This document shows positions 5,201-61,707 of a stretch of 64,000 bases of DNA, in pieces. The DNA comes from an uncultured beta proteobacterium. Its GTDB lineage: Bacteria; Pseudomonadota; Gammaproteobacteria; Burkholderiales; SG8-41. The stretch covers positions 5,048-69,047 of the forward strand of contig CADECM010000005.1 of assembly GCA_902825845.1 (NCBI GenBank), given 5' to 3'. Below the pieces are notes generated by a model that saw only the letters and a list, made by a program, of their open reading frames with translations, searched no databases and was not told the origin of the DNA. The first letter of the stretch is position 1; each line of letters starts with the position of its first letter. Both the position numbers and the translations under genes were made by a program.

Positions 5201-5218
5201 TTTAAAATCAATAGGTTA
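5201..5218 (+). repeat. AT-rich IHF-consensus-like motif, copy A
   Basis: TTTAAAATCAATAGGTTA. Lies in the divergent gap between the 4875-5141 gene and the PrpD-family gene. Confidence 0.8.
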
Positions 5219-5651
5219 TATTATACCGCCAGTGCATCCAACGTGATGGCGTGGATTCGGGTGGAACGTCTTGAATCGAAACGCCGCCACGAAACCGTCC
5301 CCCGCATGACCGAGGGCTGTGCCACCGCACCATGCGAAAGTGTAGTTGCGGAAATCGGCGCGCTCGATATTGACCGTCATGCTGAACCGCTTGCCGTGGC
5401 GATGCCGTCACCAGCAACAACGGTGAAGTCGTGTTCGAGCATGGTTATAGTGACAAGCGAGGGGCACTTGCGCAGCAGGCAAGCTCGACGTTTGTCTGCC
5501 GAAAAGACTTTACGTAATAATCGGCATTCGCGTCCATCGCGATCACCGAAGCGGCGTATTCTACGGTGTCGGGCGCGGTGCTGCTGCAGTCTGCACGGGT
5601 TCCAACCTAAGATTCTCCATCCGGCTGAACAGGCTTCAACAGGAAGACATC

Positions 5652-7010
5652 ATGGATGCTGCCACTGCCCACCTGGTCGATCACGCACTGCGGACGGACT
5701 ATGCCGCGCTGTCCGAACACACGGTGCACGAATGCAAGCGCCGCCTGATCGATACCATCGCCTGCGCAATAGGTGCCTACGATGAACCGCTGAGCCGCAT
5801 GGCGCGCGCGGTGGCGGCCCGCTGCACGGGAACGCCCTCCGCCAGCGTGTGGGGTTCGCCCGTGCCAAGCACGCCGGAAGCGGCGGCATTCGCCAATGGC
5901 GTGATGCTGCGGCTGGATGACATCAGCGACAACTACCGCGTGAAAAGCGGCGGCCATCCCAGCGACACCATTGCCGGTGTGCTGGCCGCGGGCGAGGCGC
6001 TGCATGCCGGCGGCGCATCGGTGATCAACGCCATCACCATCGCCTACGATGTCTACTGCGGCCTGATCGAATCCTTCGACATCAACAGCAAGGGCTGGGA
6101 TCAACCGGTCTACGGCGTGGTGGCGTGCGCACTGGGCGTGGGCAGGCTGCTCGGGCTTGACCGCGAGCAGATGGGCAACGCGGTGTCGCTGGCGCTGGTG
6201 CCCAACATGGCGCTGTTCGAAACTCGCGCCGGCGAAATCTCCAACTGGAAGGGCTGTGCCGGCGGCAACGCCTCGCGCAACGCGGTGTTCGCGGCCTTCC
6301 TCGCGCGTGACGGCTTCACCGGCCCGCCCGCTGCGCTCGAAGGCCGCTACGGGTTGTGGAACATCACCGGCCAATTCGACTGGGCGGTGTCGGTGGACGG
6401 CAATGCGCAACACCGCATCACGCAGACCCACATGAAGAGCTACCCGGTGTGCGGTCACGGCCAGTCCGCGGTGCAGACCGCCATTGAAATGCGGCCGCGG
6501 GTGCGCGTGGACGACATTGCGCAGATTCATGTCGACGCCTACCGCATGTCCGTCGAACTGATGGCGAATGAACCCTCCCGCTGGGCGCCGGCGACGCGGG
6601 AAACCGCCGATCACAGCCTGCCCTATGTGGTGGCGGCCGCGTTGCTCGATGGCGAAGTGGTGCCGCAGTCGTTTGCGGATGACCGTTTGCGTGACCCCGC
6701 GCTCGCCGCGCTGATGCAGAAGGTGACGGTGGCCGAAGACCCTGACATCAGCGCGCGCTTCCCGCAATCATGGTCAACCCGCATTCGCGTGCGCCATGGC
6801 GCGGGCGACGAAACCACGCATGAGGTGCGCCACCCCAAGGGCCATATCCGTGATCCGCTGAGCGACGCGGAACTGGAAACCAAGTTTCGCGGCATGTTTC
6901 GCGGCTTCGGCGGTGACGCCCAGTGTCACGCCGTGCTCGACGCCCTGTGGCAGTTCGAACATGCGCACGACGTCGCGGATGTGTTGACGCTGTTGCTCAG
7001 GCGTAATTGA
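5652..7010 (+). CDS. MmgE/PrpD family protein (2-methylcitrate dehydratase-like)
   Basis: The 452-aa length and an N-terminus of the pattern ...DYAALSEHTVHECKRRLIDTIACAIGA are typical of the MmgE/PrpD family. Confidence 0.88.
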   Translation: MDAATAHLVDHALRTDYAALSEHTVHECKRRLIDTIACAIGAYDEPLSRMARAVAARCTGTPSASVWGSPVPSTPEAAAFANGVMLRLDDISDNYRVKSGGHPSDTIAGVLAAGEALHAGGASVINAITIAYDVYCGLIESFDINSKGWDQPVYGVVACALGVGRLLGLDREQMGNAVSLALVPNMALFETRAGEISNWKGCAGGNASRNAVFAAFLARDGFTGPPAALEGRYGLWNITGQFDWAVSVDGNAQHRITQTHMKSYPVCGHGQSAVQTAIEMRPRVRVDDIAQIHVDAYRMSVELMANEPSRWAPATRETADHSLPYVVAAALLDGEVVPQSFADDRLRDPALAALMQKVTVAEDPDISARFPQSWSTRIRVRHGAGDETTHEVRHPKGHIRDPLSDAELETKFRGMFRGFGGDAQCHAVLDALWQFEHAHDVADVLTLLLRRN

Positions 7011-7908
7011 GCTTCAGCCCCGGCTCCGGCCATTGCATCACGCCCAGCCGCCCGCTGTCGGAAAGCGTGATGTAGGCGGTACGCATGTCCGGTCCGCCGA
7101 AGCAGATGTTGGTCGGATAACGATCGGGCATCTTCACCGCGCGCACGATGTCGCCGGCAGGCGAAATCTCGGTGATATAGCCGGTGCTCAGCGTCGCCAC
7201 CGCGATATTGCCGCTCGCCATCACCGCCAGGCTGTCAAAGCGCGCGTTACCGCCGAGCCCGGCAATGGTGCGCCCGCTGTGCGGCGCGAATTCGCTCCTG
7301 GGCCGCAATTGCCCGGGCCCGCGCACTTCGAACGCCCACAAGCGTGCGCCTTCGGTGTCCGCGACATACAGCGTGTTGCCGTCCGGCGACAGCCCGCAGC
7401 CGTTGGGGCTTAACATCGGATAGGCCAGCGTGATGATTTTCGATCCATCCGGCAGCGCGTAATACAGCCCGCCGTGGTCGCGATGCCGCGCATAGCGCTT
7501 GCCGAGATCCGTGAAGTAAAAGCCGCCGGCCTTGTCGAATACCAGATCGTTCGGCGCCGACAGCAGCTGGCCATCGGCTTCCTTGTAGAGCAGCGTCGCC
7601 ATGCCGGTTTTGGGATCGATGCGCTGCACGGAACCATACTTGTAGTCCGGATGCGGCCCCATGCCCATGGAGTGTCCTTCGACATAGCGGCTGCCGCCGT
7701 TGTTGCACAAATAGAAATATCCGTCAGGCCCGATCGCCAGACCGTTGGGTCCGCCGCCGCAATCGGAAAACACGCTGACCTTGCCGTCGGGCGTCACGCG
7801 CGAACAGCGGCCGTTGCGAATTTCCGTCAATACGATGGAGCCATCGGCACACACCACGGGGCCTTCCGGAAAGCCCAATCCACCTGCGAGTATGGAAACG
7901 TCGTCCAT
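6997..7908 (-). CDS. SMP-30/gluconolactonase/LRE family protein
   Basis: Contains GLGFPEGPV, PNGLAIGPDG, PNDLVFD and LSPNGCGLSPDGNTLYVADT beta-propeller repeats. The start at 7908 follows AAAGGAGAATG. Confidence 0.85.
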   Translation of the reverse strand: MDDVSILAGGLGFPEGPVVCADGSIVLTEIRNGRCSRVTPDGKVSVFSDCGGGPNGLAIGPDGYFYLCNNGGSRYVEGHSMGMGPHPDYKYGSVQRIDPKTGMATLLYKEADGQLLSAPNDLVFDKAGGFYFTDLGKRYARHRDHGGLYYALPDGSKIITLAYPMLSPNGCGLSPDGNTLYVADTEGARLWAFEVRGPGQLRPRSEFAPHSGRTIAGLGGNARFDSLAVMASGNIAVATLSTGYITEISPAGDIVRAVKMPDRYPTNICFGGPDMRTAYITLSDSGRLGVMQWPEPGLKLNYA

Positions 7909-7943
7909 GTTGGCATTCTCCTTTGTCTTGAGTGGGGGCGAGG

Positions 7944-12107: not shown

Positions 12108-13061
12108 TCAGATGCTGTATTCGCGCGACTCGCGCTCGGCAGACATGCGCAATGCCGATTCAATCGTGGCGCGCGTTAAATTAGGAGAAAATAATTCAAT
12201 AAAATCATATACATATGATCTTATCTCAACACCATGGCGCAGCGCCAGGCGGGTCATGCTGCTGGCAAACAGATGCGATGCGTCGATCCTGCGCAAATCA
12301 TTGTCGGTGCGTTCGTCAAACGCCATCGCCGCGATGATGCCGACACCGAGGCCTTCCCTTACGTAGGTCTTTATGACGTCCGAGTCCAGCGCCGTCAACA
12401 CAATGTCCGGTTGCACGCCGGCACGGGCGAACGCCGCATCAATGTGGGGACGTCCGGTAAAAATCACTTCATACGTCACGAGGGGATGGCGCGCCAGTTC
12501 TGCGAGGGTCGGGCGTACCACGTCCGTTAGCGGATGATCCGGCGGCACTACGAGCACATGATTCCATGAGTAACAGGGGAAGCTCAAAAGGTCGTCGGCG
12601 AGCGCAAGTGATTCGGTGGCAATGCCGACGTCCGCGTCACCGCTGCGCACCGCATCCACGATGCGCTGCGGCTCGTACTGGTGGAACGCGAGTTTCACCT
12701 TGGGAAACCTGCGCCGGAACTGCGCCACCACGCGAGGCAGCGCGTAACGAGCCTGCGTGTGAGTGGTTGCTACCACCAGATCGCCCTGATCACGGCTGCG
12801 AAAGTCGGCTGCCGTGGTTCGCAAGTTCGCCTGCTCCAACAGCAGGCGCTCGACAATGGGCACGATTTCCCGTCCGGCAGCTGTGTAGCCCGTCAGGCGC
12901 TTGCCGTGGCGGGCAAACAACTCCACGCCAAGCTCCTGTTCCAATTCGCGAATTTGCCGGCTGATCGCCGGCTGCGTGGTGTGCAGCACCTGCGCCACCG
13001 TCGACAGGTTGAAGCCCTGATGCGAAGTTTCCTTGACCGCACGCAGTTGTTGGAGATTCAT
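12108..13061 (-). CDS. LysR-family transcriptional regulator, CysB/Cbl-like
   Basis: The N-terminal HTH reads MNLQQLRAVKE...NLSTVAQVLHTTQPAISRQIRELEQELGVELF. It is divergent from the sulfite reductase operon across a 250-bp AT-rich gap. Confidence 0.85.
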   Translation of the reverse strand: MNLQQLRAVKETSHQGFNLSTVAQVLHTTQPAISRQIRELEQELGVELFARHGKRLTGYTAAGREIVPIVERLLLEQANLRTTAADFRSRDQGDLVVATTHTQARYALPRVVAQFRRRFPKVKLAFHQYEPQRIVDAVRSGDADVGIATESLALADDLLSFPCYSWNHVLVVPPDHPLTDVVRPTLAELARHPLVTYEVIFTGRPHIDAAFARAGVQPDIVLTALDSDVIKTYVREGLGVGIIAAMAFDERTDNDLRRIDASHLFASSMTRLALRHGVEIRSYVYDFIELFSPNLTRATIESALRMSAERESREYSI

Positions 13062-13148
13062 GTTAATTGTTGGATTTCAGGCTGACACAAATAAATTACA
13101 AATGGAATGGTGGGGCATTGCCCACAAAACAGGTCAATAGACTTTATA

Positions 13149-13166
13149 TAACCTATTGTTATTAAA
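13149..13166 (-). repeat. AT-rich motif, copy B
   Basis: The minus strand reads TTTAATAACAATAGGTTA. Lies in the cysB-like/cysI divergent region. Confidence 0.7.
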
Positions 13167-13312
13167 CATATAGTTTTTTGTAAAGGAATTTTGTCACAGT
13201 ATATATATCACAAATTATATAAGTAAGTTCAAAAATAGTACTTTACAGCATATAACGTTTCATCGATCATCGCAACCCTGTCAAAACGGCAATCAAAACA
13301 AGGGCGTTCGAC

Positions 13313-15501: not shown

Positions 15502-16272
15502 GTGAGCGGGACCGTCCATCTCGTCGGTTCCGGGCCGGGCGCGCCGGATCTGCTGACCCTGCGCGCCGCGCGACTGCTGGAGCGCGCCGATATCGTGTTT
15601 TATGACGCACTGGTGCATCCTGAAACGCTGGCACTGGCCGCGCGCGCTGTGAAAGTTGCGGTTGGCAAGCGCAGCGGCAGACTGTCCACCGCGCAGCGTT
15701 TTATCAACAAGCAACTGATCGATGCCGCGCACAAATATCAAACCGTGGTGCGCCTGAAAGGCGGCGACCCGATGCTGTTCGGCCGCGCACAGGAAGAAAT
15801 CGATGCGCTGATGGCCGCAGGCATCGCGCTGCACATCGTGCCCGGCGTCAGTGCCGCATTCGCGGCGAGCGCGGATTTGCAGTGCTCGCTGACGCGCCGC
15901 GCGCTCGCCCGCAGCGTGGTGTTCGCCACGCCACGCGAAGCCGCGGGCAGCCGCGAGAACACCTGGGCACGGGCAGCAGCGGCGGCGGACACCGCGATAC
16001 TCTATATGGCTGCGGGCCAGGCACAGGCCGTGAGCGACGCGCTGATCGCGAACGGCGTGCCGGCCTCGCGACCGGCCGTGATCGTCGAAAACGCTTCAAA
16101 CACCGAGCGCAGGATCATTCCCGCGAACGTGGGCTCTCTGCACACGGCCGCGGAACATATCGGTGACGGTCCGGCGCTGGTGATGGTGGGCGAGGTTTAT
16201 GCGGACATCACTGCCGCAGGACTTGAATGGCCTGTTTCAGCATTACCTACGCGCGCACCCGTTACACCCTAA
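15502..16272 (+). CDS. cobA: Uroporphyrinogen-III C-methyltransferase (SUMT)
   Basis: GTG start 4 nt after the DUF934 stop. Contains VHLVGSGPGAPDLLTLRAARLLERADIVFYDALV and VVRLKGGDPMLFGR. Confidence 0.85.
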   Translation: MSGTVHLVGSGPGAPDLLTLRAARLLERADIVFYDALVHPETLALAARAVKVAVGKRSGRLSTAQRFINKQLIDAAHKYQTVVRLKGGDPMLFGRAQEEIDALMAAGIALHIVPGVSAAFAASADLQCSLTRRALARSVVFATPREAAGSRENTWARAAAAADTAILYMAAGQAQAVSDALIANGVPASRPAVIVENASNTERRIIPANVGSLHTAAEHIGDGPALVMVGEVYADITAAGLEWPVSALPTRAPVTP

Positions 16273-16285
16273 CTAATTGTTTTTA
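16270..16285 (-). repeat. AT-rich motif, copy C (5'-truncated)
   Basis: The minus strand reads TAAAAACAATTAGTTA. It overlaps the cobA stop codon. Confidence 0.65.
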
Positions 16286-16822
16286 TTTGGTTTTTAAGTT
16301 CTCCGCCGTTCGACCCACGGGCCTCTTGTGGCACGGTATACCGGCCGGGGATGCGCCCGGCTTTCCGCAGTTACTGCGCGGCGGCGCGCTGACGACCAAG
16401 GCACGATCAAGGCAACATCACTGATCGCTTGTGCCTGCGGAAACGTCGCCCCCCCTTGGAACTCGAAATACAAGACCCCTAGCTCGCGGCAACTTGATCC
16501 TTGCGCACGGACGACGTTGACTGGAACTCATTTCATCATTATTCACGCGTGCGACGCACGATCTGTGGGGGCCTCAGTTACGATCGAGACGAAGGACAAG
16601 CGCAGCAATATCTAAAATATTGCAAGCCTGGCCAACAAAGCAGCCCGCCCACGATGTCCTGTCCCCGGATGGGGAGAACGGGCCGCCATGCAGCACGCGC
16701 TTGATTGTGAGACAGGTTCCAACGTGGCCAACGGCAGGCTACGCGCAGCAACCCACGAACCACGGACTTTGAGAAAATGCCGTGTCGAATCGAGGCAACG
16801 TCCAACAGCAAGAAAGAACAAC

Positions 16823-19261: not shown

Positions 19262-20302
19262 ATGATTGAGAGCAAGATGTGTTATGGGTTGCCGCCGGTG
19301 CGGGAACGGCAGTGGTGGTGCACAGCATCGTTCTTGCTCGCAACATGTGCGTCCCTATCAGGGGGGCTGGCGCAAGCCGCTGACACAAGCGCAGTGCAGG
19401 CTTTTCCCACCCGCCCGATTCGCCTCGTCGTCCCGTTCCCCGCCGGCGGCACCGCCGATGTGATCGCGCGCGGCGTCGCCAGTGAAGTGGGCGCGCAGCT
19501 CGGCCAGACCATCGTCATTGACAATCGCGGCGGTGCCAACGGCATCATCGGCATCGACATCGTTGCCAAGTCGGCCCCCGACGGCCACACGCTGTTGCAC
19601 AGCACCGCGTCGATCGTGATCAATCCCAGCATCTATTCCCGGCTGCCGTACGACACCTTTCGCGATTTCGATCCAGTGACCAATCTGGTGTTGGGCACCG
19701 GCTATCTGGTGGTGCTGCATCCGGCCGTGCCGGCCAACACGGTCAGGGAACTCATTTCACTCGCGCGCAGCGGCAAGGTCAGCTACAGCTCGCCGGGCGT
19801 CGGCAACACCCTGCATCTGGCAGCGGAAATGTTTGCCACCCGTACCGGTGTGCATCTGCTGCACGTGCCATACAAGGGCGTAGCGCCGGCACTGGGCGCG
19901 CTGCTCGCCGGTGAAGTGCAAATGACACTGATCCCGCCCACCATTGCGGTGCCGCAGATCAAGGCAGGACGCGCCAAAGCGATTGCGTTTACCGGTGCCA
20001 CGCGCTTTGCCGGATTGCCGCAACTGCCGACCATGAACGAGGCGGGCGTCACCGATCTGGTGCTGACCGGCGCATGGCACGGCTGGTTTGCGGCGGCCAA
20101 ATCGCCGCCAAAAGCAATAGCGCGTCTGCATCAGGAAGTTGCGAAATCGCTCAAGCTGCCGAAGGTGCGCGAATTGATCATCGCCGGCGGCTACGACCCC
20201 GACGGCCGCAGCCCGGCCGAGTTCGCCCGGTTTCTGCGCGCCGAAACCGGGCGCTATGCGGAGATGGTGCGGGTGGCCAAAGTACCCAAAGTGTCCAACT
20301 AG
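19262..20302 (+). CDS. Bug-family (TctC-like) substrate-binding protein
   Basis: Contains FPTRPIRLVVPFPAGGTAD and IDNRGGANG. The start could be 19262 or 19277. Confidence 0.85.
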   Translation: MIESKMCYGLPPVRERQWWCTASFLLATCASLSGGLAQAADTSAVQAFPTRPIRLVVPFPAGGTADVIARGVASEVGAQLGQTIVIDNRGGANGIIGIDIVAKSAPDGHTLLHSTASIVINPSIYSRLPYDTFRDFDPVTNLVLGTGYLVVLHPAVPANTVRELISLARSGKVSYSSPGVGNTLHLAAEMFATRTGVHLLHVPYKGVAPALGALLAGEVQMTLIPPTIAVPQIKAGRAKAIAFTGATRFAGLPQLPTMNEAGVTDLVLTGAWHGWFAAAKSPPKAIARLHQEVAKSLKLPKVRELIIAGGYDPDGRSPAEFARFLRAETGRYAEMVRVAKVPKVSN

Positions 20303-20309
20303 AAAATTG

Positions 20310-20327
20310 TTTAAAAACAACAAGTTA
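20310..20327 (+). repeat. AT-rich motif, copy D
   Basis: TTTAAAAACAACAAGTTA. Starts 8 nt after the Bug gene stop. Confidence 0.8.
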
Positions 20328-20345
20328 CGTTCAAATTGCGCTGGC

Positions 20346-23129: not shown

Positions 23130-24068
23130 TCAGGCGACACCCGCCGCGTGCGCCTGCTGATCCGCGTGATAACTCGAGCGCACCAGCGGTCCACTCGCGG
23201 CATGCACAAACCCCATCTCGGCGGCCTTGGCGGCAAAGCGGTCGAATACCGCCGGTTCGACGTAGCGCAGCACCGGCAGGTGATGCGCGCCCGGCTGCAG
23301 GTACTGGCCGATGGTCAGCATGTCGACGTTGTGTGCCCTGAGGTCGCGCATCACGTCCAGAATTTCCTCGTCGGTTTCACCGAGGCCCACCATGAGGCCG
23401 GACTTGGTCGTCACGTGAGGAAAACGTGACTTAAATTTTTTTAATAAAATCAATGAGTTACTGTAGTCCGCCCCGGGACGTGCCTGCTTGTAGAGGCGCG
23501 GCACGGTTTCGAGGTTGTGGTTCATCACGTCGGGCGGACACTCGCTGAGAATATCCAACGCGAGGTCAAGGCGTCCGCGAAAATCCGGCACCAGCACTTC
23601 GATGCGCGTGTGCGGCGAGCGCGCGCGCACTTCGCGGATGCAGTCCCTGAAATGCGCGGCGCCGCCGTCGCGCAGATCGTCGCGATCGACGCTGGTGATC
23701 ACCACGTATTTGAGTTTCAGCGCGGCGATGGTGTCGGCCAGATGCACCGGCTCGTCGGCGTCCGGCGGCAACGGCCGGCCATGGCCCACGTCGCAGAACG
23801 GACAGCGGCGCGTGCACAAGTCGCCGAGGATCATGAAGGTCGCGGTGCCCTTGCCGAAGCATTCGCCGATGTTGGGACAGCTCGCTTCCTCGCACACCGT
23901 GTGCAGCTTTTGCTCGCGCAGGATGTGCTTGATCTCGCGAAAGCGCGGGCTGTCGGTGAGCCGCACGCGGATCCATTCGGGCTTGCGCAGCGCCTCTGCC
24001 GGCACGATCTTGATCGGGATGCGCGCGGTCTTGGCGCTGCCTTTTTGTTTTTCGCCGGCTTCGCTCAT
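23130..24068 (-). CDS. lipA: Lipoyl synthase
   Basis: Contains the [12 protein letters not shown] and [10 protein letters not shown] radical-SAM cysteine clusters and a C-terminal RSSYHAD. The start at 24068 (MSEAGEKQK...) was chosen because the longer ORF overlaps lipB. Confidence 0.95.
23443..23460 (+). repeat. AT-rich motif, copy E (inside the lipA coding sequence)
   Basis: AATAAAATCAATGAGTTA. Encoded on the lipA antisense strand across codons for SLILLKKF. Confidence 0.7.
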
Positions 24069-24788: not shown

Positions 24789-25277
24789 ATGCCACGATTC
24801 GCACCCAAAACCAGTCTCCGCGTCCTGCTCTGCGCAATGTTGTGCGCCTGCGGTGCGACGATTGCCGCCGAGCAATCCTCCTACAACGCCGATCTCGCCA
24901 CGCTCTACAATGAGTATCAGCGCCTGCTCGCGGTGCGGGATGCCTGCATCACCGCGCAGCCGGCACGGCGCAGTGAGGTGGCCAGCGCCTATCAGGACTG
25001 GCTGGACCGCCATCAGCGCATCGTGGATGATCTGGACAACCGCTTCGCCGCGATCGTCAAGCGCGCCTCCAAAAATCAGGCCGAATTTACCCGCAACTAC
25101 GGCAAGTATCAGGCCGAGGTCTATCAGATGCGCGAAGAAAATAAAAAGGCGCTGTTGGCCGACCGGGAAAAACTCGCCAAACAATGCGGCGAGTTTGTCA
25201 CCTACGTGCGCCATCCCCAATCGGATATCCCGACCCTGTTTCCCACGCAGTTCAAGAATATCTACCGCGTGCGATAG
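24789..25277 (+). CDS. Hypothetical exported protein or lipoprotein
   Basis: The N-terminus LRVLLCAMLCACG resembles a lipobox. No family was recognised. Confidence 0.5.
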   Translation: MPRFAPKTSLRVLLCAMLCACGATIAAEQSSYNADLATLYNEYQRLLAVRDACITAQPARRSEVASAYQDWLDRHQRIVDDLDNRFAAIVKRASKNQAEFTRNYGKYQAEVYQMREENKKALLADREKLAKQCGEFVTYVRHPQSDIPTLFPTQFKNIYRVR

Positions 25278-25281
25278 TTTG

Positions 25282-25299
25282 TAACTAATTGTTTTTAAA
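25282..25299 (-). repeat. AT-rich motif, copy F
   Basis: The minus strand reads TTTAAAAACAATTAGTTA. Starts 5 nt after the stop at 25277. Confidence 0.8.
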
Positions 25300-25846
25300 G
25301 TATTTTTTAATAGCCTTGGTGCTCACGGGCGGGGCCTATGGTGATGCAGCCGGCGCGGCCTTGTCGCCCGGCGACAGCGAGATCCGGCACTGGATCAGCC
25401 GTCACGCGCATCAGCGGCACGCGGTTGAAGTCTCTGCCGCACGGCAGCGCGTGGTCGGTGACCTCGACGGCGACGGACGCAATGACGTCGCGGTGCTTTA
25501 CACGCTGAAATCGCGTGCCATCCCTGGCGGCGAGTCGCGCTATCTGGCGGCCTTTTTAAACGACAGCGGGCGGCAGCGCGCAACAACGGGCAAAGACCGA
25601 TCACAACAAGCCCGTGACATTCGCCGCGACGCCTTGCGTTATCACGCCCATGTGCTGGTAAGCGGGCCGGGGGCGGGCGAGGCCAATCGCATTACCATAC
25701 TCAATCGCACGCTGGTGGTGGAGATGCTGACGTTTGCGCCCGGCGATGCCGCCTGTTGCCCTACGCGCGCCGCCACACGACGCTATCGGCTGGGCACACA
25801 GGCACTGACGCTGGTGCGGCCCGCAACCGGAAAGCATGCGCGATGA
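25289..25846 (+). CDS. Hypothetical exported protein
   Basis: The putative TTG start lies inside an AT-rich repeat copy. Contains a hydrophobic N-terminus and a GDLDGDGRNDVAVLY motif (FG-GAP/VCBS-like). The start is uncertain. Confidence 0.45.
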   Translation: MFLKYFLIALVLTGGAYGDAAGAALSPGDSEIRHWISRHAHQRHAVEVSAARQRVVGDLDGDGRNDVAVLYTLKSRAIPGGESRYLAAFLNDSGRQRATTGKDRSQQARDIRRDALRYHAHVLVSGPGAGEANRITILNRTLVVEMLTFAPGDAACCPTRAATRRYRLGTQALTLVRPATGKHAR

Positions 25847-29144: not shown

Positions 29145-29157
29145 TTACAATAAATCG

Positions 29158-29175
29158 TTTAAAATCAATTAGTTA
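29158..29175 (+). repeat. AT-rich motif, copy G
   Basis: TTTAAAATCAATTAGTTA. Lies 14 nt upstream of the ECF sigma start, in the sigma/hsp20 divergent region. Confidence 0.8.
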
Positions 29176-29217
29176 TTAGAATATTCGGGCGCTGACCCAA
29201 ATTTTGGCTGCGACACG

Positions 29218-33226: not shown

Positions 33227-33275
33227 ATGAAAGACGCCCGGTCGGGCACAGCGCGACCGGGCGACAGTTTTATTG

Positions 33276-33293
33276 TAAGTATTTGTTTTTAAA
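33276..33293 (-). repeat. AT-rich motif, copy H
   Basis: The minus strand reads TTTAAAAACAAATACTTA. Lies 7 nt downstream of the ctpA stop. Confidence 0.8.
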
Positions 33294-33299
33294 TGATTT

Positions 33300-40411: not shown

Positions 40412-40425
40412 TTTACAAAAAATCA

Positions 40426-40443
40426 TTTAAAAACAAATATTTA
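40426..40443 (+). repeat. AT-rich motif, copy I
   Basis: TTTAAAAACAAATATTTA. Starts 15 nt after the gpsA stop. Shares 22 identical nt (AAAAATCATTTAAAAACAAATA) with copy H. Confidence 0.8.
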
Positions 40444-40493
40444 TGTAAAAACTCCAGCGCCATGCCGGTGCATGCGCGCATACAGGAACGGTT

Positions 40494-43374: not shown

Positions 43375-43421
43375 GGCGTGGTTTCTCCCGTGTCAAAACC
43401 GGTACGGCAAGATCAAGTCGG

Positions 43422-46342: not shown

Positions 46343-46405
46343 AAAAGCGGGGCTGTGCCACCGACCCCAGTGGATTCTGAACACGTTACTGTAACGGAGA
46401 TCGCC

Positions 46406-49507: not shown

Positions 49508-49573
49508 GGGATTGCAGTAGATGAGCCGCGCGGGTCACAAGCAACAGACAGCGGCAGACCATCGCCACGGCAA

Positions 49574-50218: not shown

Positions 50219-50398
50219 GCGGAGCGTCCCAAGGTGGGCAATACAGCGGCACAGTCGGGTTCCATGAGCCGCCCTTGCGAACTTGATTCTGCCTTACCGC
50301 ACCGTTCAGGCGCAAGGCATATGTCTTCCGGATGATGGCCTGCAACACGGCATGAGGTACATACTGTATCCCTGTCCACATTTCCATGGGAGCACAAA

Positions 50399-51343: not shown

Positions 51344-51469
51344 ACCGGGACAGACAGGACGGCGAATCGGGGATGGCCATTGCGGGTACAAACCGCAAGC
51401 ACTCGCCTGCCCCGGACGTGCACGCGCCATACGTTACACTCCGTTCACCGAATCACAATCACACAGCGA

Positions 51470-52429
51470 ATGAGCGCCCCATCCCTGAAACAAGTTGTCA
51501 TTTGCATTGTCTGTGCGGCCATGCCACTGACGGCCGTGGCTCAGACCTATCCGACCCGTCCGGTGCGGCTGCTGATTCCCAGCGGCGCCGGCGGCATCAC
51601 CGACATCCTCGCGCGCATCATCGCGCCCAAACTCGGCGATGCGCTGGGCCAGCAGGTGGTGGTCGACAACCGGCCCGGCGCCAGCGGCATCGTCGGCTCG
51701 CAGATTGTGGCGAAGGCGGCGCCCGACGGTTACACGCTGCTGATGGCGTTCCCGTCGCATGTCACCAACCCGTCGCTGTTCCCCGACATGCCGTACGACA
51801 CGGTGCGCGATTTTGCGCCGGTCACACTGGTGAGCGCGGTGGCGCCGGTGCTGGTGGTGAATGCGCAAATGCCGGCGCGCAACATGAAGGATTTCATTGC
51901 GCTCGCCAAAACCAAACCCGGCGGGCTTAATCACGGCGCGGTGGGTGCCGGCAGCATGGGCGCGCTGGCCGCCGATCTGCTGGGCGAAATGGCGGGCTTC
52001 AAGTTCACGCAGGTGATGTTCAAGGGTTCGCCGCAGGGCATGACCGCGGTGTTGTCGGGCGAAATCGATTTTTACATGCTGGGTTCGGCGGGCTCCGCCG
52101 TGCCGCAGGTGAAGGCGGGCCGCATCCGCGCGCTCGGCGTGGGCGGGCGCAACCGCATCGCGCCGTTGCCCGAGGTGCCGCCGATCGCGGACACGCTGCC
52201 GGGTTATGAGGCGCGTGGCTGGAACGGCATTCTCGCGCCGGCCGGCACGCCCAAGCCCATCATCGAGCGGCTGAATCGCGAACTGGTGAAGATCATTCGC
52301 TCGGCGGACATGCAGCCCGCGCTGGCGGGTGAAGGCGCGGCGGCCGTGGGCAACACGCCCGCGGAGTTCGCGGCGGTAATCCGCGCGGATATCGCGAAAT
52401 GGGCCGCAATCATCAAAGCACGAAAATAA
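51470..52429 (+). CDS. Bug-family (TctC-like) substrate-binding protein
   Basis: Signal peptide, then YPTRPVRLLIPSGAGGITD and VDNRPGASG. Confidence 0.9.
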   Translation: MSAPSLKQVVICIVCAAMPLTAVAQTYPTRPVRLLIPSGAGGITDILARIIAPKLGDALGQQVVVDNRPGASGIVGSQIVAKAAPDGYTLLMAFPSHVTNPSLFPDMPYDTVRDFAPVTLVSAVAPVLVVNAQMPARNMKDFIALAKTKPGGLNHGAVGAGSMGALAADLLGEMAGFKFTQVMFKGSPQGMTAVLSGEIDFYMLGSAGSAVPQVKAGRIRALGVGGRNRIAPLPEVPPIADTLPGYEARGWNGILAPAGTPKPIIERLNRELVKIIRSADMQPALAGEGAAAVGNTPAEFAAVIRADIAKWAAIIKARK

Positions 52430-52436
52430 AAAATTA

Positions 52437-52454
52437 TTTAAAAACAAATACTTA
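52437..52454 (+). repeat. AT-rich motif, copy J
   Basis: TTTAAAAACAAATACTTA. Starts 8 nt after the Bug gene stop and ends 13 nt before the next ATG. Confidence 0.8.
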
Positions 52455-52467
52455 TATAATTATCGCC

Positions 52468-54069: not shown

Positions 54070-54138
54070 GGCGCCACCGTCTCAAAGTGACGCTGCCGAC
54101 ACCTCAGCACGGCCATATGGCCGTGCGTCTTATTTTTA

Positions 54139-54156
54139 TAACTTATTGATTTTAAA
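54139..54156 (-). repeat. AT-rich motif, copy K
   Basis: The minus strand reads TTTAAAATCAATAAGTTA. Lies 5 nt downstream of the histidine kinase stop. Confidence 0.8.
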
Positions 54157-54160
54157 CAAT

Positions 54161-56803
54161 TTATTTTGCAGCATCCTGCGGCACCCATTGCGGCAGCGTC
54201 ACGATAAATACACTGCCCTGATCCACCTTGCTTTCCACGGTGATCGTGCCGTGCTGCAGTTCGACGATTTTTTTGGTTAGCGCCAGCCCCAGGCCGGTGC
54301 CCTCGTGCCGGCGCGCGTCTCCGCCGTCGATCTGATAGAACTTCTCGAACAGCCGCTCGATATCCTTGCCGTCAATACCGATGCCGGTGTCGCTCACGCG
54401 CACGACCAGCAGGCCCTGCGGTTCGCCGACAATCCCGACTTCAACCTCTACTCGACCGCCTGCAGGGGTGAACTTGACGCCGTTCGACACCAGGTTGTGC
54501 AACACTTGCACGAATTTAGTCCGGTCCAGCGTGACGCTGGACAATGCCGGCGCGACCCTCCGCTGCAATTCGACGCGCTTCCCGATTGCGATGGGCGATA
54601 CCACGCCGCAGACTTCCGCCACCGCCTCGCTCACGGAAAACGTTTCCGGCGTGAGTTCCATCTTGCCCGCTTCGATCTTCGACAGATCGAGGATGTCGTT
54701 GATCAGCGTCAACAGGTGCAGGCTGCTGCCATGAACGCTGTCCAGACACTCGGCCTGTTCCTCATTCAACGGGCCTGCTTGCCCCGCGCGCAGATATTCC
54801 GCAAAACCAATCACGCCGGTCAGCGGCGTACGCAGCTCGTGTGACATGGTGGCCAGAAATTCGCTTTTCAGGCGGCTCGCTTCCGCGGCTGCATCGCGCT
54901 CGCGCATGGCCTCTTCCGCCAGCTTGCGATCGGTCAGATCGACGCAGGTGCCGATATAACCGGCAAAACCGCCGGCACCGTCAAACCGCGGTTTGGCCAC
55001 GGTCAGCATCAGGCGGTAAACGCCATCGTGGCGCCGCAGGCGGCACTCCATCTGAAACTCGGCACGCGAATCCATGCCTTTGTTGAATGTGCTCACGCAC
55101 GTTGCCAGGTCGTCCGGATGAATGCCGGCCATCCAGCCGCTGCCCAGTTCCTGGTCCAGCGTGCGCCCGGTGAAATTGAGCCAGCCCGAATTGAAATACG
55201 TGCCGCGCTTGCGCGCGTCGTTCATCCAGATCAGCGCCGGCGCCGTGTCGGCGACAATGCGAAAGCGTTCCTCGCTTTCACGCAGCGCATTTTCTGCGCG
55301 GCGCCGTTCGGTGACGTCGCGCGCTATCGTGGAAATGCCGGTTACCGCGCCCTGCCGGTCGCGCAACGGCGAGGCACTGGCCGACATCTGCAGTTCCCGG
55401 CCGTCCTTGGACAAAAAAACCGTCTGGAACTGATTGACGCTCTCGCCATCCTGCGCGCGCGCGCGAACCTCGCGTTCCGCTTCATGCCATTGCGGCGGCA
55501 TCAGCAATGCCTGGAATTTCCTGCCGATGGCTTCCGCGGCCGTGTAGCCCAACAGTTTTTGCGCGCCGGGGTTCCACGTCTGAATCACCCCTTCAACCGT
55601 TTTGGTGATGATGACATCTTCCGAATGGGCGACGATCGCCGCCATCTGCGCCAGGGCCTCTGTCGATTTCTTGCGTTCCGTGATGTCGGAGAAAGTGATA
55701 ATGACACGGGGCGGGCGGCCGTCCTGTGCGTGGCCGGACAACGGTATGCCGTTTTGCACAATCCAGATGTCGGCGCCGTCGGACCTCTTCAATACTCGTT
55801 CACGATGCAGCAGCGGCTGGTTGGTGCGCCGGATAATCGCAACCGCCAGCGTCTCGGGATTGAACGCGGTTTCTTCCACCGCCCTGGGCTTCCACGGAAT
55901 ATCGGCGTAATGCATGCCCACCAGCGCGCTCGCCTTCCAGCCCAATAGGCGTTCGGCCGCCCGATTGCACGCCTCGATGCGTCCGTCGGCATCCCACAAG
56001 ACAACCCCTTCCTCCAGCGATTCGAACAAGCCGCGATACAGGGTTTCACTGTCGCGCAAGGCGTTTTCCGCGCGCTTGCGCTCACTGACATCGCGAATCA
56101 CCAGCGTGAAATGCTGTTCGCCGTCCACGTCGTGACGGGAAATGGTAGCCTCCACCGGGAATTCTTCGCCGTTGGCACGTACCCCTCTTACCGGGCCTTC
56201 CACAAAGCGGTTCAGGGCGCCGCTGACCGCCAGACTGCGAATCAGTTTTTCGCACAGCCGGCGGTGTGACTCAGGAATCAACAGTCTTGCCGCCGTGCCC
56301 ACCAGCTGGTGCGGTGCGTAGCCAAACATTTTCTCGGCGGCCGGATTGATATAGACGATCTCGAGTTGATCATCGACCGTAATAATGCCATCCATCGCCG
56401 CGTTGAACATGCCGGACAGCCGGATTTCATCCGCGCGCAGCCGCGCTTGAGACTGGAGCATGCGGTCCGCGAGGTAACTGACGACGGCGCCGGCAAGGAT
56501 AAAGATTGACCACTGCATCAGGTCAAACGACGAACCCGCGCCGCCGGCACGATAACTTTCCGCCAGAAAGAACGCGGTCAGCAGCGCCGAGAAGGCAGTG
56601 CACAGCACGCCCGGCAACAGGCCGCCAAGGTACGCGCACAGCGTTACCGGGATGATGAACAGGATCATCGCCGGCCGCCCCAGGGTGGTATCGCCAAAGT
56701 AAAGGCGTGCCAGCAACGCAACGCCCGGCAACGCCATGGCGAGGACGAGGGCCAGCCCGTTGCGCCGGGATTCGCTCATTGCGAGCGGGGCGACATCAGG
56801 CAT
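54161..56803 (-). CDS. Multi-PAS sensor histidine kinase (membrane N-terminus, about four PAS/PAC modules, HisKA, HATPase_c)
   Basis: The N-terminal TM bundle is DUF4118-like. Repeated PAS blocks (e.g. WNPGAQKLLGYTAAEAIG, RDVTERRRAENALRESEERF). H-box FLATMSHELRTPL. G-boxes DTGIGI and GTGLGL. No receiver domain and no adjacent response regulator. Confidence 0.9.
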   Translation of the reverse strand: MPDVAPLAMSESRRNGLALVLAMALPGVALLARLYFGDTTLGRPAMILFIIPVTLCAYLGGLLPGVLCTAFSALLTAFFLAESYRAGGAGSSFDLMQWSIFILAGAVVSYLADRMLQSQARLRADEIRLSGMFNAAMDGIITVDDQLEIVYINPAAEKMFGYAPHQLVGTAARLLIPESHRRLCEKLIRSLAVSGALNRFVEGPVRGVRANGEEFPVEATISRHDVDGEQHFTLVIRDVSERKRAENALRDSETLYRGLFESLEEGVVLWDADGRIEACNRAAERLLGWKASALVGMHYADIPWKPRAVEETAFNPETLAVAIIRRTNQPLLHRERVLKRSDGADIWIVQNGIPLSGHAQDGRPPRVIITFSDITERKKSTEALAQMAAIVAHSEDVIITKTVEGVIQTWNPGAQKLLGYTAAEAIGRKFQALLMPPQWHEAEREVRARAQDGESVNQFQTVFLSKDGRELQMSASASPLRDRQGAVTGISTIARDVTERRRAENALRESEERFRIVADTAPALIWMNDARKRGTYFNSGWLNFTGRTLDQELGSGWMAGIHPDDLATCVSTFNKGMDSRAEFQMECRLRRHDGVYRLMLTVAKPRFDGAGGFAGYIGTCVDLTDRKLAEEAMRERDAAAEASRLKSEFLATMSHELRTPLTGVIGFAEYLRAGQAGPLNEEQAECLDSVHGSSLHLLTLINDILDLSKIEAGKMELTPETFSVSEAVAEVCGVVSPIAIGKRVELQRRVAPALSSVTLDRTKFVQVLHNLVSNGVKFTPAGGRVEVEVGIVGEPQGLLVVRVSDTGIGIDGKDIERLFEKFYQIDGGDARRHEGTGLGLALTKKIVELQHGTITVESKVDQGSVFIVTLPQWVPQDAAK

Positions 56804-59290: not shown

Positions 59291-59303
59291 ATGTTAAAAT
59301 ATT

Positions 59304-59321
59304 TAATAAAAACAGATACTT
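59304..59321 (+). repeat. AT-rich motif, copy L (variant)
   Basis: AATAAAAACAGATACTTA. Lies between the convergent GST and usp stops. Confidence 0.65.
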
Positions 59322-59329
59322 ACATAAAT

Positions 59330-60089: not shown

Positions 60090-60470
60090 CTAGCTGGCGA
60101 GTCCGATCTGCTTTTTCTTTTCGCGCGCGGCCTTTTTTTGCTGCAATTCCAGCGCGGCGCGCTCCGCGTCGGCCTTGGCTTGGGCGTCGGCCTGCGCCTG
60201 CTTGAGTTGGCGCTGCAGATCGGGCCAGCGGGCTTTGCATTCCTCCCACGCCGCCGTGGCCGCGGCGGCTTCCTCGGGCGGCAGCGCACCGATGTAATTG
60301 GGCGCAAAATTGTACGCTGGCGGAACCCAGTTCTTGCGCGTTTCCTCGAATGGGGTCGCATCGCTGAAGCGAAAAAACTGCAGCACCTGATTCGGCCCGG
60401 AAGCATTGCCTTCGCCGCTGCGATCCAATACCACCCAGCCGTGTTCCTTGCTGTGTCCCCACCATTCCAT
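60090..60470 (-). CDS. Hypothetical protein (126 aa) with an Ala/Gln/Lys-rich helical tail
   Basis: The ATG at 60470 is preceded by CAGGAGATCGAC. No family was recognised. Confidence 0.5.
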   Translation of the reverse strand: MEWWGHSKEHGWVVLDRSGEGNASGPNQVLQFFRFSDATPFEETRKNWVPPAYNFAPNYIGALPPEEAAAATAAWEECKARWPDLQRQLKQAQADAQAKADAERAALELQQKKAAREKKKQIGLAS

Positions 60471-60684
60471 GTCGATCTCCTGTTGAATTGCGGACTGTCG
60501 GGGTTTGACCCTGCAGACCCGCATCCCGTTCGCCGTAAATCCCGCGAGCGGGTGACTTCGCGTTGGGGTATAAGTGCCGCACAATGTGCGTGCACCTTGA
60601 GTCGTGGCCGCAGCGCCCGAAAATCGGCACCCTGCGTGTCGCCCGTTTTGACCATGGTAACACCATATGGTCACTGCTTGTCGA

Positions 60685-61401
60685 TCACGCGCCAGGATCG
60701 GGAGATTCGATCGCATCAATCAACGACGCATCGTCATCGCGCGGGCGTTTGTCGCTACGAACCGGGTGGGCGGCGATCATGTCTTCGGGTGGGGGCTTGA
60801 GCAACGCCTCCAGCGCGGGCACGGCGTCAATCGAGGTGTCGAGCCAGAACGCTTCGTCTTCCCGCGCAATGATCACCGGCATGCGGTCATGCACCCGCGA
60901 CATCGCGCGGTTGGCCTCGCCCACGATAATGGTGCAGGATTCGATCACCTCATCCCCGCGATGCCAGCGGTCCCACAGTCCGGCGAAGCTGACGATGCCA
61001 CGATCCGGCTTGTGCAGCCACCACTTCATTTTTCCGCGCGGCGTCTCCTGCCACTCGAACCAGCCCAGCGCCGGAATCAAACAGCGCCGCTTGCGAAACG
61101 GCACGCGGTAACTCGCCGCGCCGGCCACCTTGTCAGTGCGCGCATTGAAGGTGCTGAACTTGATGCGCGGCTCCTTCGACCAGTACGGCAGCAGCCACCA
61201 CTGCATCGTCACCAGTTCCGTCGCGCCATGGGCGCCGTGGCGGATCACCGGCACATAGGCCGCGGGATTGCCCTGCTGCGGCGTGACGTTATAACGTTCC
61301 GCAAAATGCGCATCCGCCGGATAGGGATTGTTCTGTCCGCGCCCGAGGTGGTAGTGCCGCTCGATCGCGGCCTGATTGGGGGTTACGTAGCGGCCGCACA
61401 T
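60685..61401 (-). CDS. SOS response-associated peptidase (SRAP/YedK family)
   Basis: N-terminal MCGRY (catalytic Cys2), NARTDKV, RRCLIPALGWFEW and DRMPVI. Confidence 0.9.
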   Translation of the reverse strand: MCGRYVTPNQAAIERHYHLGRGQNNPYPADAHFAERYNVTPQQGNPAAYVPVIRHGAHGATELVTMQWWLLPYWSKEPRIKFSTFNARTDKVAGAASYRVPFRKRRCLIPALGWFEWQETPRGKMKWWLHKPDRGIVSFAGLWDRWHRGDEVIESCTIIVGEANRAMSRVHDRMPVIIAREDEAFWLDTSIDAVPALEALLKPPPEDMIAAHPVRSDKRPRDDDASLIDAIESPDPGA

Positions 61402-61689
61402 AACAGAATTCTACGCAAGAACTCGCTTTCGCCATTTATTTGCCAGAATGGATTTGGATTGGCGTGTCAGTTTCCAGACTAGACAAGCATCCAACGCTTA
61501 CGAACCCTGCAATCAGATTGTCAAGTTTGATAGAAATTTCAATCTTGTGACGATCGCTGCCCATGAAGTGCGCCAGCGCCGAGTAGCCGGAGCTGGGCTC
61601 GCGGCCTACCATCGCCTTTGCAAGATAAGCGCAATCCAGCTCCCTGCCTTCCCCTACGCGAATAGCCTGTGTTCAAATTTAAAATAATA

Positions 61690-61707
61690 TTTAAAAACAA
61701 CTACTTA
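61690..61707 (+). repeat. AT-rich motif, copy M
   Basis: TTTAAAAACAACTACTTA. Lies 12 nt upstream of the 25-bp palindrome. Confidence 0.8.

Follow-up and report, generated by a model that had tools for sequence, protein, structure and literature searches.

A dispersed AT-rich element in a clade of GC-rich uncultured Betaproteobacteria, a candidate family of recognition sites for a bending protein of the IHF type

The element and its copies

The window (the whole stretch of 64 kb that was analysed) has a GC content of 61% and carries, among others, cysB, cysI, lipA, cobA, ctpA, moeB, gpsA and hsp20. A census of AT-rich islands (at least 83% AT over 24 nt) throughout the 64 kb gives 14 of them, and all 14 hold one motif of about 36 bp, aTAAAAtAwTyr-WWTAAAAWCAAnTAsTTA-yrww (Table 1), which amounts to 14 copies per 64 kb or about one per 4.6 kb. 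The copies are not spaced with significantly greater regularity than chance would give (P=0.07). The initial annotation had listed thirteen copies of an ~18-nt motif. The dispersed family is real, since TTTAAAAWCAANNNNTTA is found exactly in nine copies at the coordinates then reported, against a mean of 0.00 in 100 dinucleotide shuffles, but conservation extends over about 36 nt rather than 18, and a 14th copy exists at 12198(+); the observation is stronger than was first reported. Relative to the earlier consensus, copy B (13149, minus strand) has one mismatch, copies C and E have two each (AAT replacing TTT), and copy L is present with three, its core being shifted one base to the right, to 59305. 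The 22-nt identity of copies H and I is borne out by direct comparison, and the stop-codon distances of C, D, F, H, I, J, K and L proved right on rechecking, while A, B, G and M, which have no upstream stop codon, belong to divergent promoter regions.

The motif holds about 44 bits of information across ~30 positions, with peaks at C9, A10, T16 and T17 and low values over N12-15. It does not fold into any secondary structure (mean MFE -1.3 kcal/mol) and has no match in Rfam.

Table 1. Position and surroundings of the 14 copies in the window
Copy	Element	Strand	Core	Context
A	5189..5224	+	5201-5218, TTTAAAATCAATAGGTTA	Divergent region; 57 nt to ATG of minus-strand gene 4875-5141
14th	12186..12221	+	12198-12215, AATAAAATCATATACATA	Overlooked in the initial annotation; within cysB CDS, antisense; 16 A/T-ending codons in a row
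B	13143..13178	-	13149-13166	cysB/cysI divergent region; 87 nt to cysB ATG
C	16264..16299	-	16270-16287, AATAAAAACAATTAGTTA	Overlaps cobA stop codon; antisense relative to both neighbours
D	20298..20333	+	20310-20327	Begins 7 nt past stop of TctC-family gene; follows a TTG and supplies codons 2-7 of CbiX-like ORF, in frame
E	23431..23466	+	23443-23460	Within lipA CDS, antisense, without indel; encodes 11 residues of the lipA product
F	25276..25311	-	25282-25299	Antisense, 4 nt past stop of 24837-25277(+); reverse complement gives TTG start and first signal-peptide codons of 25289-25846(+)
G	29146..29181	+	29158-29175	Between ECF sigma gene and hsp20; 13 nt to ECF sigma ATG (opposite strand); 42 nt 5' of hsp20 sigma-32 -35
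H	33270..33305	-	33276-33293	Strand order: ctpA stop, motif, intrinsic terminator hairpin, moeB ATG
I	40414..40449	+	40426-40443	Begins 14 nt past gpsA stop; start of accessory-looking block without counterpart in relatives
J	52425..52460	+	52437-52454	Occupies 38-nt spacer between TctC-like gene (called from C-terminal sequence; no NCBIfam hit) and hydrolase gene; ends 13 nt ahead of hydrolase ATG
K	54133..54168	-	54139-54156	Begins 4 nt past stop of 880-aa gene; 69 nt to next ATG
L	59293..59328	+	59305-59322, AATAAAAACAGATACTTA	Occupies 39-nt convergent spacer
M	61678..61713	+	61690-61707	Divergent region; 42 nt 5' of ATG of probable winged-helix regulator (assigned by visual inspection of its sequence); AT-rich palindrome in the interval

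Orientation and gene context

Among 73 copies, 18 are in sense and 21 in antisense orientation, 7 are divergent, 6 convergent and 4 in coding sequences; the orientation of the motif is independent of the flanking genes and of transcription. About 75-85% of the copies are intergenic. Genes adjoining them have unrelated functions, and thus the copies do not constitute a regulon. Random orientation together with the absence of secondary structure indicates that the element acts as DNA and not as RNA. A terminator, also considered, was rejected on the gene-independent orientation, the lack of secondary structure and the small share of gaps occupied (12 of 46).

An AU-rich RNA signal, be it an RNase E site, an S1-dependent or other translation enhancer or a 3'-UTR element, would suit the sense copies located 4-8 nt past stop codons and those lying 13-19 nt ahead of starts without a Shine-Dalgarno sequence. 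Readings of this kind had been offered in the initial annotation, but they are scarcely credible when antisense copies are no rarer than sense ones, when the cysB and lipA copies are antisense, and when the sequence itself is conserved beyond its AU content and is absent from Rfam. Copy G lies 5' of the sigma-32 promoter of hsp20 and is therefore outside the transcript of that promoter.

Our first hypothesis, a promoter or UP element of the downstream gene, was attractive in that most of the strong copies in the window are directed toward the downstream gene, the 3' end of the motif is TTAyAAT-like and some downstream starts have no Shine-Dalgarno sequence. It is very improbable in view of the random orientation over 73 copies, copies F and C being antisense to both neighbours and L lying in a convergent spacer. 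The motif is present in only 12 of the 46 intergenic gaps and is missing from several divergent promoter regions; no conserved -35/-10 pair with legal spacing is found, hsp20 is provided with a sigma-32 promoter of its own, downstream of copy G, and at copy H the motif is followed by a terminator.

Copies in coding sequences and clade distribution

The term 'intercistronic', applied to the family at first, is too narrow, as copies also occupy divergent and convergent regions, codons 2-7 of the CbiX-like gene and the interior of cysB (the 14th copy), lipA (copy E) and, in relatives, polA. Compared with homologues, these three differ by synonymous and conservative substitutions and have no indels, and they depart from the consensus only where the protein sequence forces a mismatch. 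The cysB copy is present in the cysB of L326 and absent from that of L003. Copies of the motif arise in place, through substitution.

The motif is a feature of a single clade of uncultured Betaproteobacteria, in whose loci it occurs about once per 5.8 kb; 1.06 Mb of sequence from other, more distant GC-rich Betaproteobacteria is almost devoid of it. The exact 18-mer is common to many metagenome contigs of 53-66% GC, whereas its matches in viral contigs are almost only AT-rich chance hits. Several sites (ctpA/moeB, the gpsA 3' end, the CbiX start, hsp20/sigma, and those inside lipA, cysB and polA) are conserved in position between genomes at ~80% amino-acid identity, which indicates sustained constraint. 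Orthologous sites also turn over, decaying by point changes and small deletions. One synteny break and the start of an accessory-looking block both fall at copy I, and this block of 12 kb (40.5-52.4 kb) holds no copy.

A dispersed repeat found mostly at 'safe' positions past stop codons might be a miniature mobile element of the MITE, REP or Correia-like type spread by transposition, and the PBP5/aminotransferase spacer of L324, ~38 nt longer than that of its relatives, contains an L324-specific copy. Such an origin is nevertheless most unlikely, as the element has no terminal inverted repeats, target-site duplication or hairpin, copies in coding sequences are not accompanied by indels, and orthologous copies are kept over deep divergence and decay gradually as described above.

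A candidate bending site, its rivals and known systems

The IHF sites of E. coli and phage lambda have the consensus WATCAANNNNTTR with a 5' dA+dT tract, as in H' of lambda attP. Positions 6-18 of the motif read A-A-W-C-A-A-N4-T-T-A, that is, WATCAANNNNTTR with no or one mismatch, and the conservation profile parallels the IHF core (C-A and T-T invariant, N4 weak) plus a 5' A-tract. In lambda H' the core is preceded by an A/T tract at a distance of 8 bp, which we take to be the same spacing as in the motif. The conserved length of ~36 bp is close to the IHF footprint of ~35 bp. Six occurrences of WATCAANNNNTTR are found in the window against 0.72 expected, four of them in copies A, E, G and K, as first noticed. 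The chromosome of E. coli measures about 4.6 Mb. It has 1042/1022 IHF ChIP-seq regions, a density that the one copy per 4.6 kb of the window resembles, and less than 10% of its IHF motifs are upstream of operons (PMC3333857).

An IHF-type protein, already suggested by the initial annotation, remains the best concrete candidate, with the qualification that 9 of the 14 copies in the window, and most of those in relatives, have A where WATCAA has its canonical T. Conservation also extends to T3 and A4-A5, 5' of the core that begins with A6-A7, and to T13 and A14 within N4. To our knowledge these positions are not read by IHF. As far as we know, IHF is universal in Proteobacteria, yet the motif is clade-restricted, and therefore a clade-specific factor is needed, for instance a paralogue, an altered specificity or drive.

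In six genomes, 42, 42, 53, 41, 32 and 43 bp separate the motif from the sigma-32 -35 of hsp20, and each of these spacings is a multiple of the helical turn (3, 4 or 5 turns) to within ~1 bp. Helical phase is kept at this one promoter, the evidence coming from a single locus with two large indels (roughly p~0.06 by our own estimate), and whole-turn spacing is the expectation for a bending site obliged to face the promoter.

The motif might instead be the site of another clade-specific DNA-binding protein (for example a global regulator, a factor that organises the chromosome, or a recombinase or transposase that has been domesticated), its likeness to IHF sites being incidental. This is rather unlikely, although the ~44 bits include positions outside the IHF consensus, the motif is limited to one clade and copy I marks a synteny break and the start of the accessory-looking block. 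The analysis yielded no candidate for such a protein, nor any evident gene with conserved linkage to the motif; there are no inverted pairs of copies and, by eye, no flanking cassette structure, and the functionally unrelated neighbours do not make up a regulon.

A more serious contender, though still a doubtful one, is an uptake-signal-like sequence functionally analogous to DUS or USS and spread by drive. The DNA-uptake machinery of the clade would prefer fragments bearing the motif, any mutation improving a copy would be propagated through transformation and recombination, as a molecular drive, and copies would build up wherever tolerated. Such a process would account for a dominant over-represented long motif, in both orientations and specific to one clade, for the exact 18-mer in metagenome contigs and for orthologous positions that are kept with turnover. 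Uptake sequences behave in coding regions as the cysB, lipA and polA copies do, and they are missing from genes without homologues in relatives (PMC2817400), as the motif is from the 12-kb block. Against this, one motif per 4.6-6 kb is sparser than the ~1 uptake sequence per 1.2 kb of H. influenzae and N. meningitidis or the ~1 per 3 kb of A. pleuropneumoniae (copy counts from PMC2817400 set against the respective genome sizes). Most copies are intergenic, their spacing is not significantly regular, and the L324-specific copy with its extra nucleotides is not a pure substitution. The helical phase at hsp20 is not predicted by uptake, and under this model the close resemblance to the IHF core with its A-tract would be due to chance, which we put at a few percent.

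That the ~36-bp element constitutes a family of double-stranded recognition sites for an IHF-type (DNABII) bending protein is a tentative preference, judged from sequence as falling just short of probable. The element would work as double-stranded DNA recognised by a sequence-specific DNA-bending nucleoid protein, either IHF or a DNABII paralogue, for which one clade of GC-rich uncultured Betaproteobacteria may maintain about one site per 4.6-6 kb. In a chromosome of 61% GC, the copies are essentially the only AT-rich, readily bent or melted spots, placed where sequence constraint permits: after stop codons, in promoter regions, in first codons and in tolerant coding sequence. The role would presumably be architectural, with local bending and an influence on melting induced by supercoiling at promoters like that of hsp20, and general nucleoid organisation elsewhere. 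Such a role is not obvious where a copy separates a stop codon from a terminator or is embedded in lipA, cysB or polA.

Among known systems, RIP/BIME-1 and the IHF sites of Neisseria Correia elements are likewise lineage-specific dispersed intergenic repeats that contain an IHF-type site and are frequently placed at the 3' ends of genes. The motif, however, is the site alone, having no REP palindromes, terminal inverted repeats or hairpin, and is also made by substitution inside coding sequences; the RIP/RIB analogy drawn initially thus fails structurally. The DUS of Neisseriaceae and the USS of Pasteurellaceae are similarly clade-specific, hugely over-represented and orientation-independent, are embedded in coding regions via codon and conservative amino-acid choice, and share conserved orthologous positions with turnover, as well as the lack of copies in one accessory block. 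In contrast to them, the motif is AT-rich, much longer and IHF-site-like, has a density 4-5 times below that of H. influenzae or N. meningitidis, and is far more biased to intergenic DNA. From IHF sites it differs in that most copies read AAACAA instead of AATCAA, in its extra invariants (TAAAA 5' of the core and TA in N4), and in being near-identical clade-wide, whereas natural IHF sites are degenerate. It agrees with them in the 13-bp core with no or one mismatch, the A/T tract ~8 bp upstream, the asymmetric extent of ~35 bp, the coinciding invariant C-A and T-T, the location mostly away from promoters at about one per 4.5 kb, and the face-of-helix spacing kept at one promoter.

The AT-rich element and its extent

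The window has a GC content of 61%, and its 64 kb contain only 14 AT-rich islands (at least 83% A+T over 24 nt), every one of which carries the same motif. All 13 copies listed in the initial annotation, referred to here as A to M, are present, although that list was incomplete, a 14th copy at 12198(+) within cysB having been overlooked. The consensus proposed there, TTTAAAAWCAANNNNTTA, has nine exact matches with correctly assigned coordinates, with none expected from 100 dinucleotide-preserving shuffles. The four remaining listed copies exist but are weaker: B differs from the consensus by one mismatch, C and E have AAT where it has TTT, and L requires the alignment to be shifted one base to the right, to 59305. 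The core of the integration host factor (IHF) site, WATCAANNNNTTR, occurs six times in the window against 0.72 expected, and copies A, E, G and K account for four of these, as had been noted. Among the 14 copies this core is perfect in four and has a single mismatch in eight, in seven of which the conserved T is changed to A; two mismatches each are present in copy L and in the copy within cysB. AAACAA is likewise found in most copies of the relatives.

The conserved unit is about twice as long as the ~18 nt originally assigned to it, spanning ~36 nt with the consensus aTAAAAtAwTyr / WWTAAAAWCAAnTAsTTA / yrww; its information content relative to a uniform background is ~44 bits, a figure inflated by ascertainment. 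Scanning the window with a 36-position IUPAC consensus at 26/36 or better recovers all 14 copies, with no match in 20 shuffles. The sole extra match (26/36, at 61719) falls in a perfect AT-rich palindrome, TTGTATCAAATTTTGATACAA, that separates copy M from the ATG of what is probably a winged-helix regulator and that probably serves this regulator as its own operator. Even spacing of the copies was dropped as not significant (coefficient of variation of the gaps 0.57 versus 0.83 simulated, P=0.07), and so was a division into GTTA and CTTA subfamilies, both forms being present in all genomes. Positions 8 (T) and 15 (G) of the window copies show no clear covariation by eye.

Features of the window and of related loci (L numbers, loci of relatives; columns: feature, position in the window, loci, remarks)
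Feature	Position	Loci	Remarks
Motif-free block	40494-52429		ClC channel, TauE, chromate transporter, PadR, methyltransferase, GST
TIR + two pterin-4a-carbinolamine dehydratase domains	46355-47623		in motif-free block
Tyrosinase	47882-49507		in motif-free block
TctC/'Bug' periplasmic receptor genes	1864-2829, 7944-8876, 9896-10870, 19394-20302, 22078-23079, 51470-52429
ctpA/moeB copy (H)		window, L003, L004, L005, L324/L325, L326	orthologous position and orientation; partly deleted in L322
gpsA 3' end copy (I)		window, L002, L004, L005	orthologous position and orientation; degenerate in L003
hsp20/ECF sigma copy (G)	29146-29290 (hsp20 region)	window, L322, L327, L328, L329	orthologous position and orientation; degenerate in L324
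Copy at stop of 24837-25277 orthologue		window, L322, L323	orthologous position and orientation
CbiX-like gene	20307-20714	L003:18887, L322:15183, L324:16967	start TTG or ATG abutting motif
cysB patch	12176-12224
lipA patch (E)	23421-23462
polA copy		L327:13707, L328:13894, L329:13792	sense orientation
Copy F, reverse complement	25282-25330
Palindrome	61708-61750
Segment from copy A to PrpD/MmgE-like gene	5219-5651		433 nt
ORF at copy A	5198-5785

Orientation, placement and clade range

Gene context was analysed for 73 copies in GC-rich loci. Among them, 18 run in the sense direction of the genes on either side and 21 run against both, 7 lie in divergent regions, 6 in convergent regions and 4 inside coding sequences. 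The orientation of the motif relative to genes is random; in the window itself, C and F run antisense to the genes on either side, and L lies in a convergent spacer. A promoter was the first idea, most strong copies of the window being directed at the downstream gene, and the initial annotation had offered an RNA signal; both are excluded by the random orientation. A consensus promoter scan, the presence of an hsp20 sigma-32 promoter downstream of copy G, and the distribution over the 46 intergenic gaps of at least 25 nt in the window, 12 of which contain the motif and 34 of which do not, are also against a promoter, and several divergent promoter regions of the window are without it. Neither a fixed orientation and distance to the downstream gene nor -35/-10 boxes with 16-18 bp spacing, as for a sigma-70 promoter with UP element, were found, nor were sigma-54 promoters near the copies.

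Folding of 42 nt gives a mean MFE of -1.3 kcal/mol, which shows the motif to be unstructured, and its flanks have no excess or asymmetry of structure (P=0.28), so that it is not a terminator, a REP/BIME or an attC-like element. At ctpA/moeB, six of the seven genomes compared have the order stop codon, motif, canonical intrinsic terminator and next gene, a separate terminator thus lying 3' of the hairpin-free motif, and in L322 the terminator is intact where the motif is a remnant. The likeness to RIP/RIB elements suggested initially does not hold, since the inverted REP palindromes that flank the IHF site in RIP/BIME-1 are absent. A MITE or Correia element is rejected for want of a terminal inverted repeat (TIR) and a target-site duplication, and because the cysB, lipA and polA copies are gap-free against their homologues. 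Taken together, a promoter, an RNA signal or a MITE is very improbable. In 60 loci the copies showed no link to tRNA genes or to integration sites, and the resemblance to dif/Xer and Tus-Ter sites, judged by eye against their consensus sequences, is limited to short AT-rich similarities at positions that are not conserved.

The window encodes proteobacterial genes such as cysB, a cysI/nirA-like gene, cobA, lipA/lipB, gpsA, moeB, ctpA, an ECF sigma factor and hsp20, together with at least four genes of the TctC ('Bug') family; among the six tabulated, three are Pfam TctC hits and three are inferred via cross-matches to the TctC orthologue in the related locus L003. Expansion of this family is typical of Burkholderiales-type Betaproteobacteria. 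The window has no tRNA gene, and an Rfam search of its whole length gave no family at gathering score. The nearest genomes are uncultured MAGs labelled Betaproteobacteria, Nitrosomonadales or Burkholderiales, with 78-80% identity for GpsA and 84-91% for LipA. The motif is present across the clade loci (L002-L005 and L322-L329, 168 kb), where 29 hits correspond to 1 per 5.8 kb, against 1 per 4.6 kb for the window, and is nearly missing beyond them: GC-rich loci of less closely related Betaproteobacteria, 1.06 Mb in total, yield just 5 hits, all marginal. It is restricted to one clade.

Exact 18-mer matches in metagenome contigs are bimodal in GC content, with an AT-rich mode and a 55-65% GC mode (53 of 120 contigs have at least 55% GC and 62 at least 50%). 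Contigs of the latter mode share the motif flanks, and several have two or three copies. Viral contigs show the pattern that chance hits produce, 116 of 120 hits being in contigs below 50% GC, and the AT-rich metagenome matches are chance hits. Orthologues of window genes at 55% identity or more were not found among the metagenome matches. One of the few GC-rich viral matches, L225 (IMGVR_UViG_3300016466_000665), has the motif directly 3' of a sequence like a tRNA 3' end (GGTTCAAGTCC...CCA), where ARAGORN calls no tRNA gene; this copy may stem from host sequence at the edge of a provirus. In practice, the motif can serve as a marker for assigning contigs to the clade during binning.

Turnover of sites and copies within genes

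Several copies occupy orthologous positions in the relatives and others have turned over. In the cysB/cysI spacer, the copies of the window and L003 are opposite in orientation and differently placed; one copy shared by L004 and L005 is missing from the window and L003, and a copy specific to L324 lies in a spacer ~38 nt longer than that of its relatives. Decay proceeds by point changes and small deletions, and no target-site duplication was seen. Gene order differs between 12-22 kb of the window and 10-20 kb of L003: the cysB-cysI-cobA-TctC-CbiX block follows gpsA in L003 and is ~27 kb from gpsA in the window, and at least one breakpoint, at the gpsA 3' end, coincides with a copy of the motif.

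Copies also arise in place by substitution, including within genes. In cysB the motif is written in 16 successive codons that all have A or T in third position. Codons of this kind make up 22.8% of those in the genome, and ~8e-7 such runs are expected in the window. This copy is gap-free against CysB structures, and its only mismatches to the 30-nt consensus can be read as avoidance of a stop codon and retention of Tyr and Ser. L326 shares this AT-rich copy, and L003 encodes the identical peptide in GC-rich codons. The gap-free lipA copy occurs in the window, L324/L325 and L326 and is missing in L322, where GC-rich codons encode A-H...M versus S/T-N...I/F elsewhere. The polA copy encodes RILSIKTISYDD, a stretch that presumably aligns without gaps to the corresponding region of E. 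coli Pol I. These patches of 40-50 nt contain only A/T-ending codons and conservative replacements, and spell the motif as nearly as the protein sequence permits.

Some copies abut gene starts. The CbiX-like gene appears to start directly before the motif, which supplies codons 2-7 after a TTG in the window and an ATG in L003, L322 and L324; public gene calls start at this same codon, and the resulting N-terminal extension, M-(F/N)-K-N-(N/K)-x-L, is missing in CbiX of L326. A signal peptide takes its TTG start and its opening residues, (M)FLKYFLIALVLTGGAYG, from the reverse complement of copy F, only 11 nt past the upstream stop codon. In five GC-rich metagenome loci (L103, L154, L184, L192 and L174), the motif forms codons 2-7 (MFKNKYL or MNKNKYL) of TctC-sized ORFs of ~320-327 aa with signal peptides and an upstream GGAGG Shine-Dalgarno sequence. 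A mini-ORF or leader peptide (NTG plus FKNKYL) was rejected, because NTG stands at -3 in only 28 of the 73 copies, of which seven, but not the others, are true gene starts (CbiX and TctC-sized proteins); we treat such copies as tolerated placement rather than function. At copy A, TTG and motif begin an ORF whose coding character is weak by eye, and the segment from this copy to the PrpD/MmgE-like gene has no convincing gene call and no Rfam match. The gap-free, in-gene and gene-start copies rule out that the motif spread mainly by transposition, and show sustained selection or drive on the DNA sequence itself.

Possible bending-protein sites or uptake signals

One ~36-bp motif makes up essentially every AT-rich island of a GC-rich genome, is found clade-wide and is imposed on essential coding sequence by codon choice, which implies a strong genome-wide force, either selection for regularly placed sites of a bending protein or transformation-linked drive. 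We tentatively regard the motif as a family of IHF-type sites, with somewhat less than even confidence. IHF sites combine WATCAA-N4-TTR with a dA+dT tract, as in the lambda H' site, whose architecture we take to be the same as that of the motif. Within the 18-nt centre, A7, C9, A10, T16 and T17 are invariant and N12-15 are weak, with an A/T tract 8 bp 5'; the flank consensus at -12 to -3 is aTAAAAtAwT, an A/T tract roughly a helical turn away from the core on its 5' side, and the conserved span is ~36 nt. Such a tract and an asymmetric extent of ~35 bp are features of IHF sites, and the extent of the motif is presumably close to the IHF footprint. E. coli has 1042/1022 IHF ChIP-seq regions, with less than 10% of motifs upstream of operons, and the density in the window approximates that of IHF in E. 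coli (PMC3333857).

Against a plain IHF site, most copies have A where WATCAA has T, and other Betaproteobacteria lack the motif although they also possess IHF. T3, A4-A5 and T13-A14 are conserved, yet to our knowledge are not read by IHF. These points would be compatible with the likeness to IHF if the clade had a DNABII paralogue of its own or if specificity had changed there; the DNA examined contains no IHF or HU gene. Another specific DNA-binding protein is an unlikely candidate.

The hsp20 locus bears on the choice between bending and drive. Its sigma-32 promoter, CTTGAAA-N14-CCCATAT, lies 42 nt downstream of copy G, and the distance from motif to -35 box in six genomes (window, L322, L324, L327, L328 and L329) is 42, 42, 53, 41, 32 and 43 bp, in each case ~1 bp or less off three, four or five helical turns despite the diverged intervening sequence; a deletion of 10 and a tandem duplication of 10 both keep the helix face. 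Such phasing, an indirect sign of protein binding and a sharp DNA bend, is expected of a bending site and not of an uptake tag, although it concerns one locus and we estimate its significance at ~0.06.

On the other hand, the motif might, with a rather low probability, be an uptake-signal-like sequence spread by transformation-linked drive, that is, a DNA uptake signal, unknown until now, of an uncultured betaproteobacterial clade of soil and sediment. Known uptake-sequence systems would then number three, and this one, in abundant environmental bacteria, would be the first to be AT-rich and to resemble an IHF site, with drive strong enough to have rewritten codons of lipA, cysB and polA. As with DUS and USS, the motif is clade-specific, far over-represented and found in both orientations; copies are embedded in three coding sequences with conservative amino-acid changes, and orthologous positions are kept with turnover, which may parallel the behaviour of USS and DUS (PMC2817400). 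The 12-kb block at 40.5-52.4 kb, which looks accessory and is replaced after gpsA in relatives by a different gene, carries no copy (Poisson P~0.06); uptake sequences are rare in genes that lack homologues in relatives. However, the density in window and clade loci is below the roughly one per 1-3 kb of known systems, copies are strongly biased toward intergenic DNA, the likeness to IHF architecture would have to be coincidental and the hsp20 phasing would go unexplained. Competence genes were not found in the DNA examined.

We classify the motif as a dispersed family of nucleoid-protein sites, of which searches by sequence string and by topic found no description in the literature. The probability that it is of a more novel kind is substantial. 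If a bending nucleoid protein is responsible, the clade offers an unusually clean natural system for IHF-type chromosome organisation and promoter tuning. Among known systems, RIP/BIME-1 and Correia elements are set apart from the motif by its lack of palindromes and TIRs; uptake sequences resemble it in population-genomic behaviour but not in density; and it works most like an IHF site, although one defining consensus position fails in most copies.
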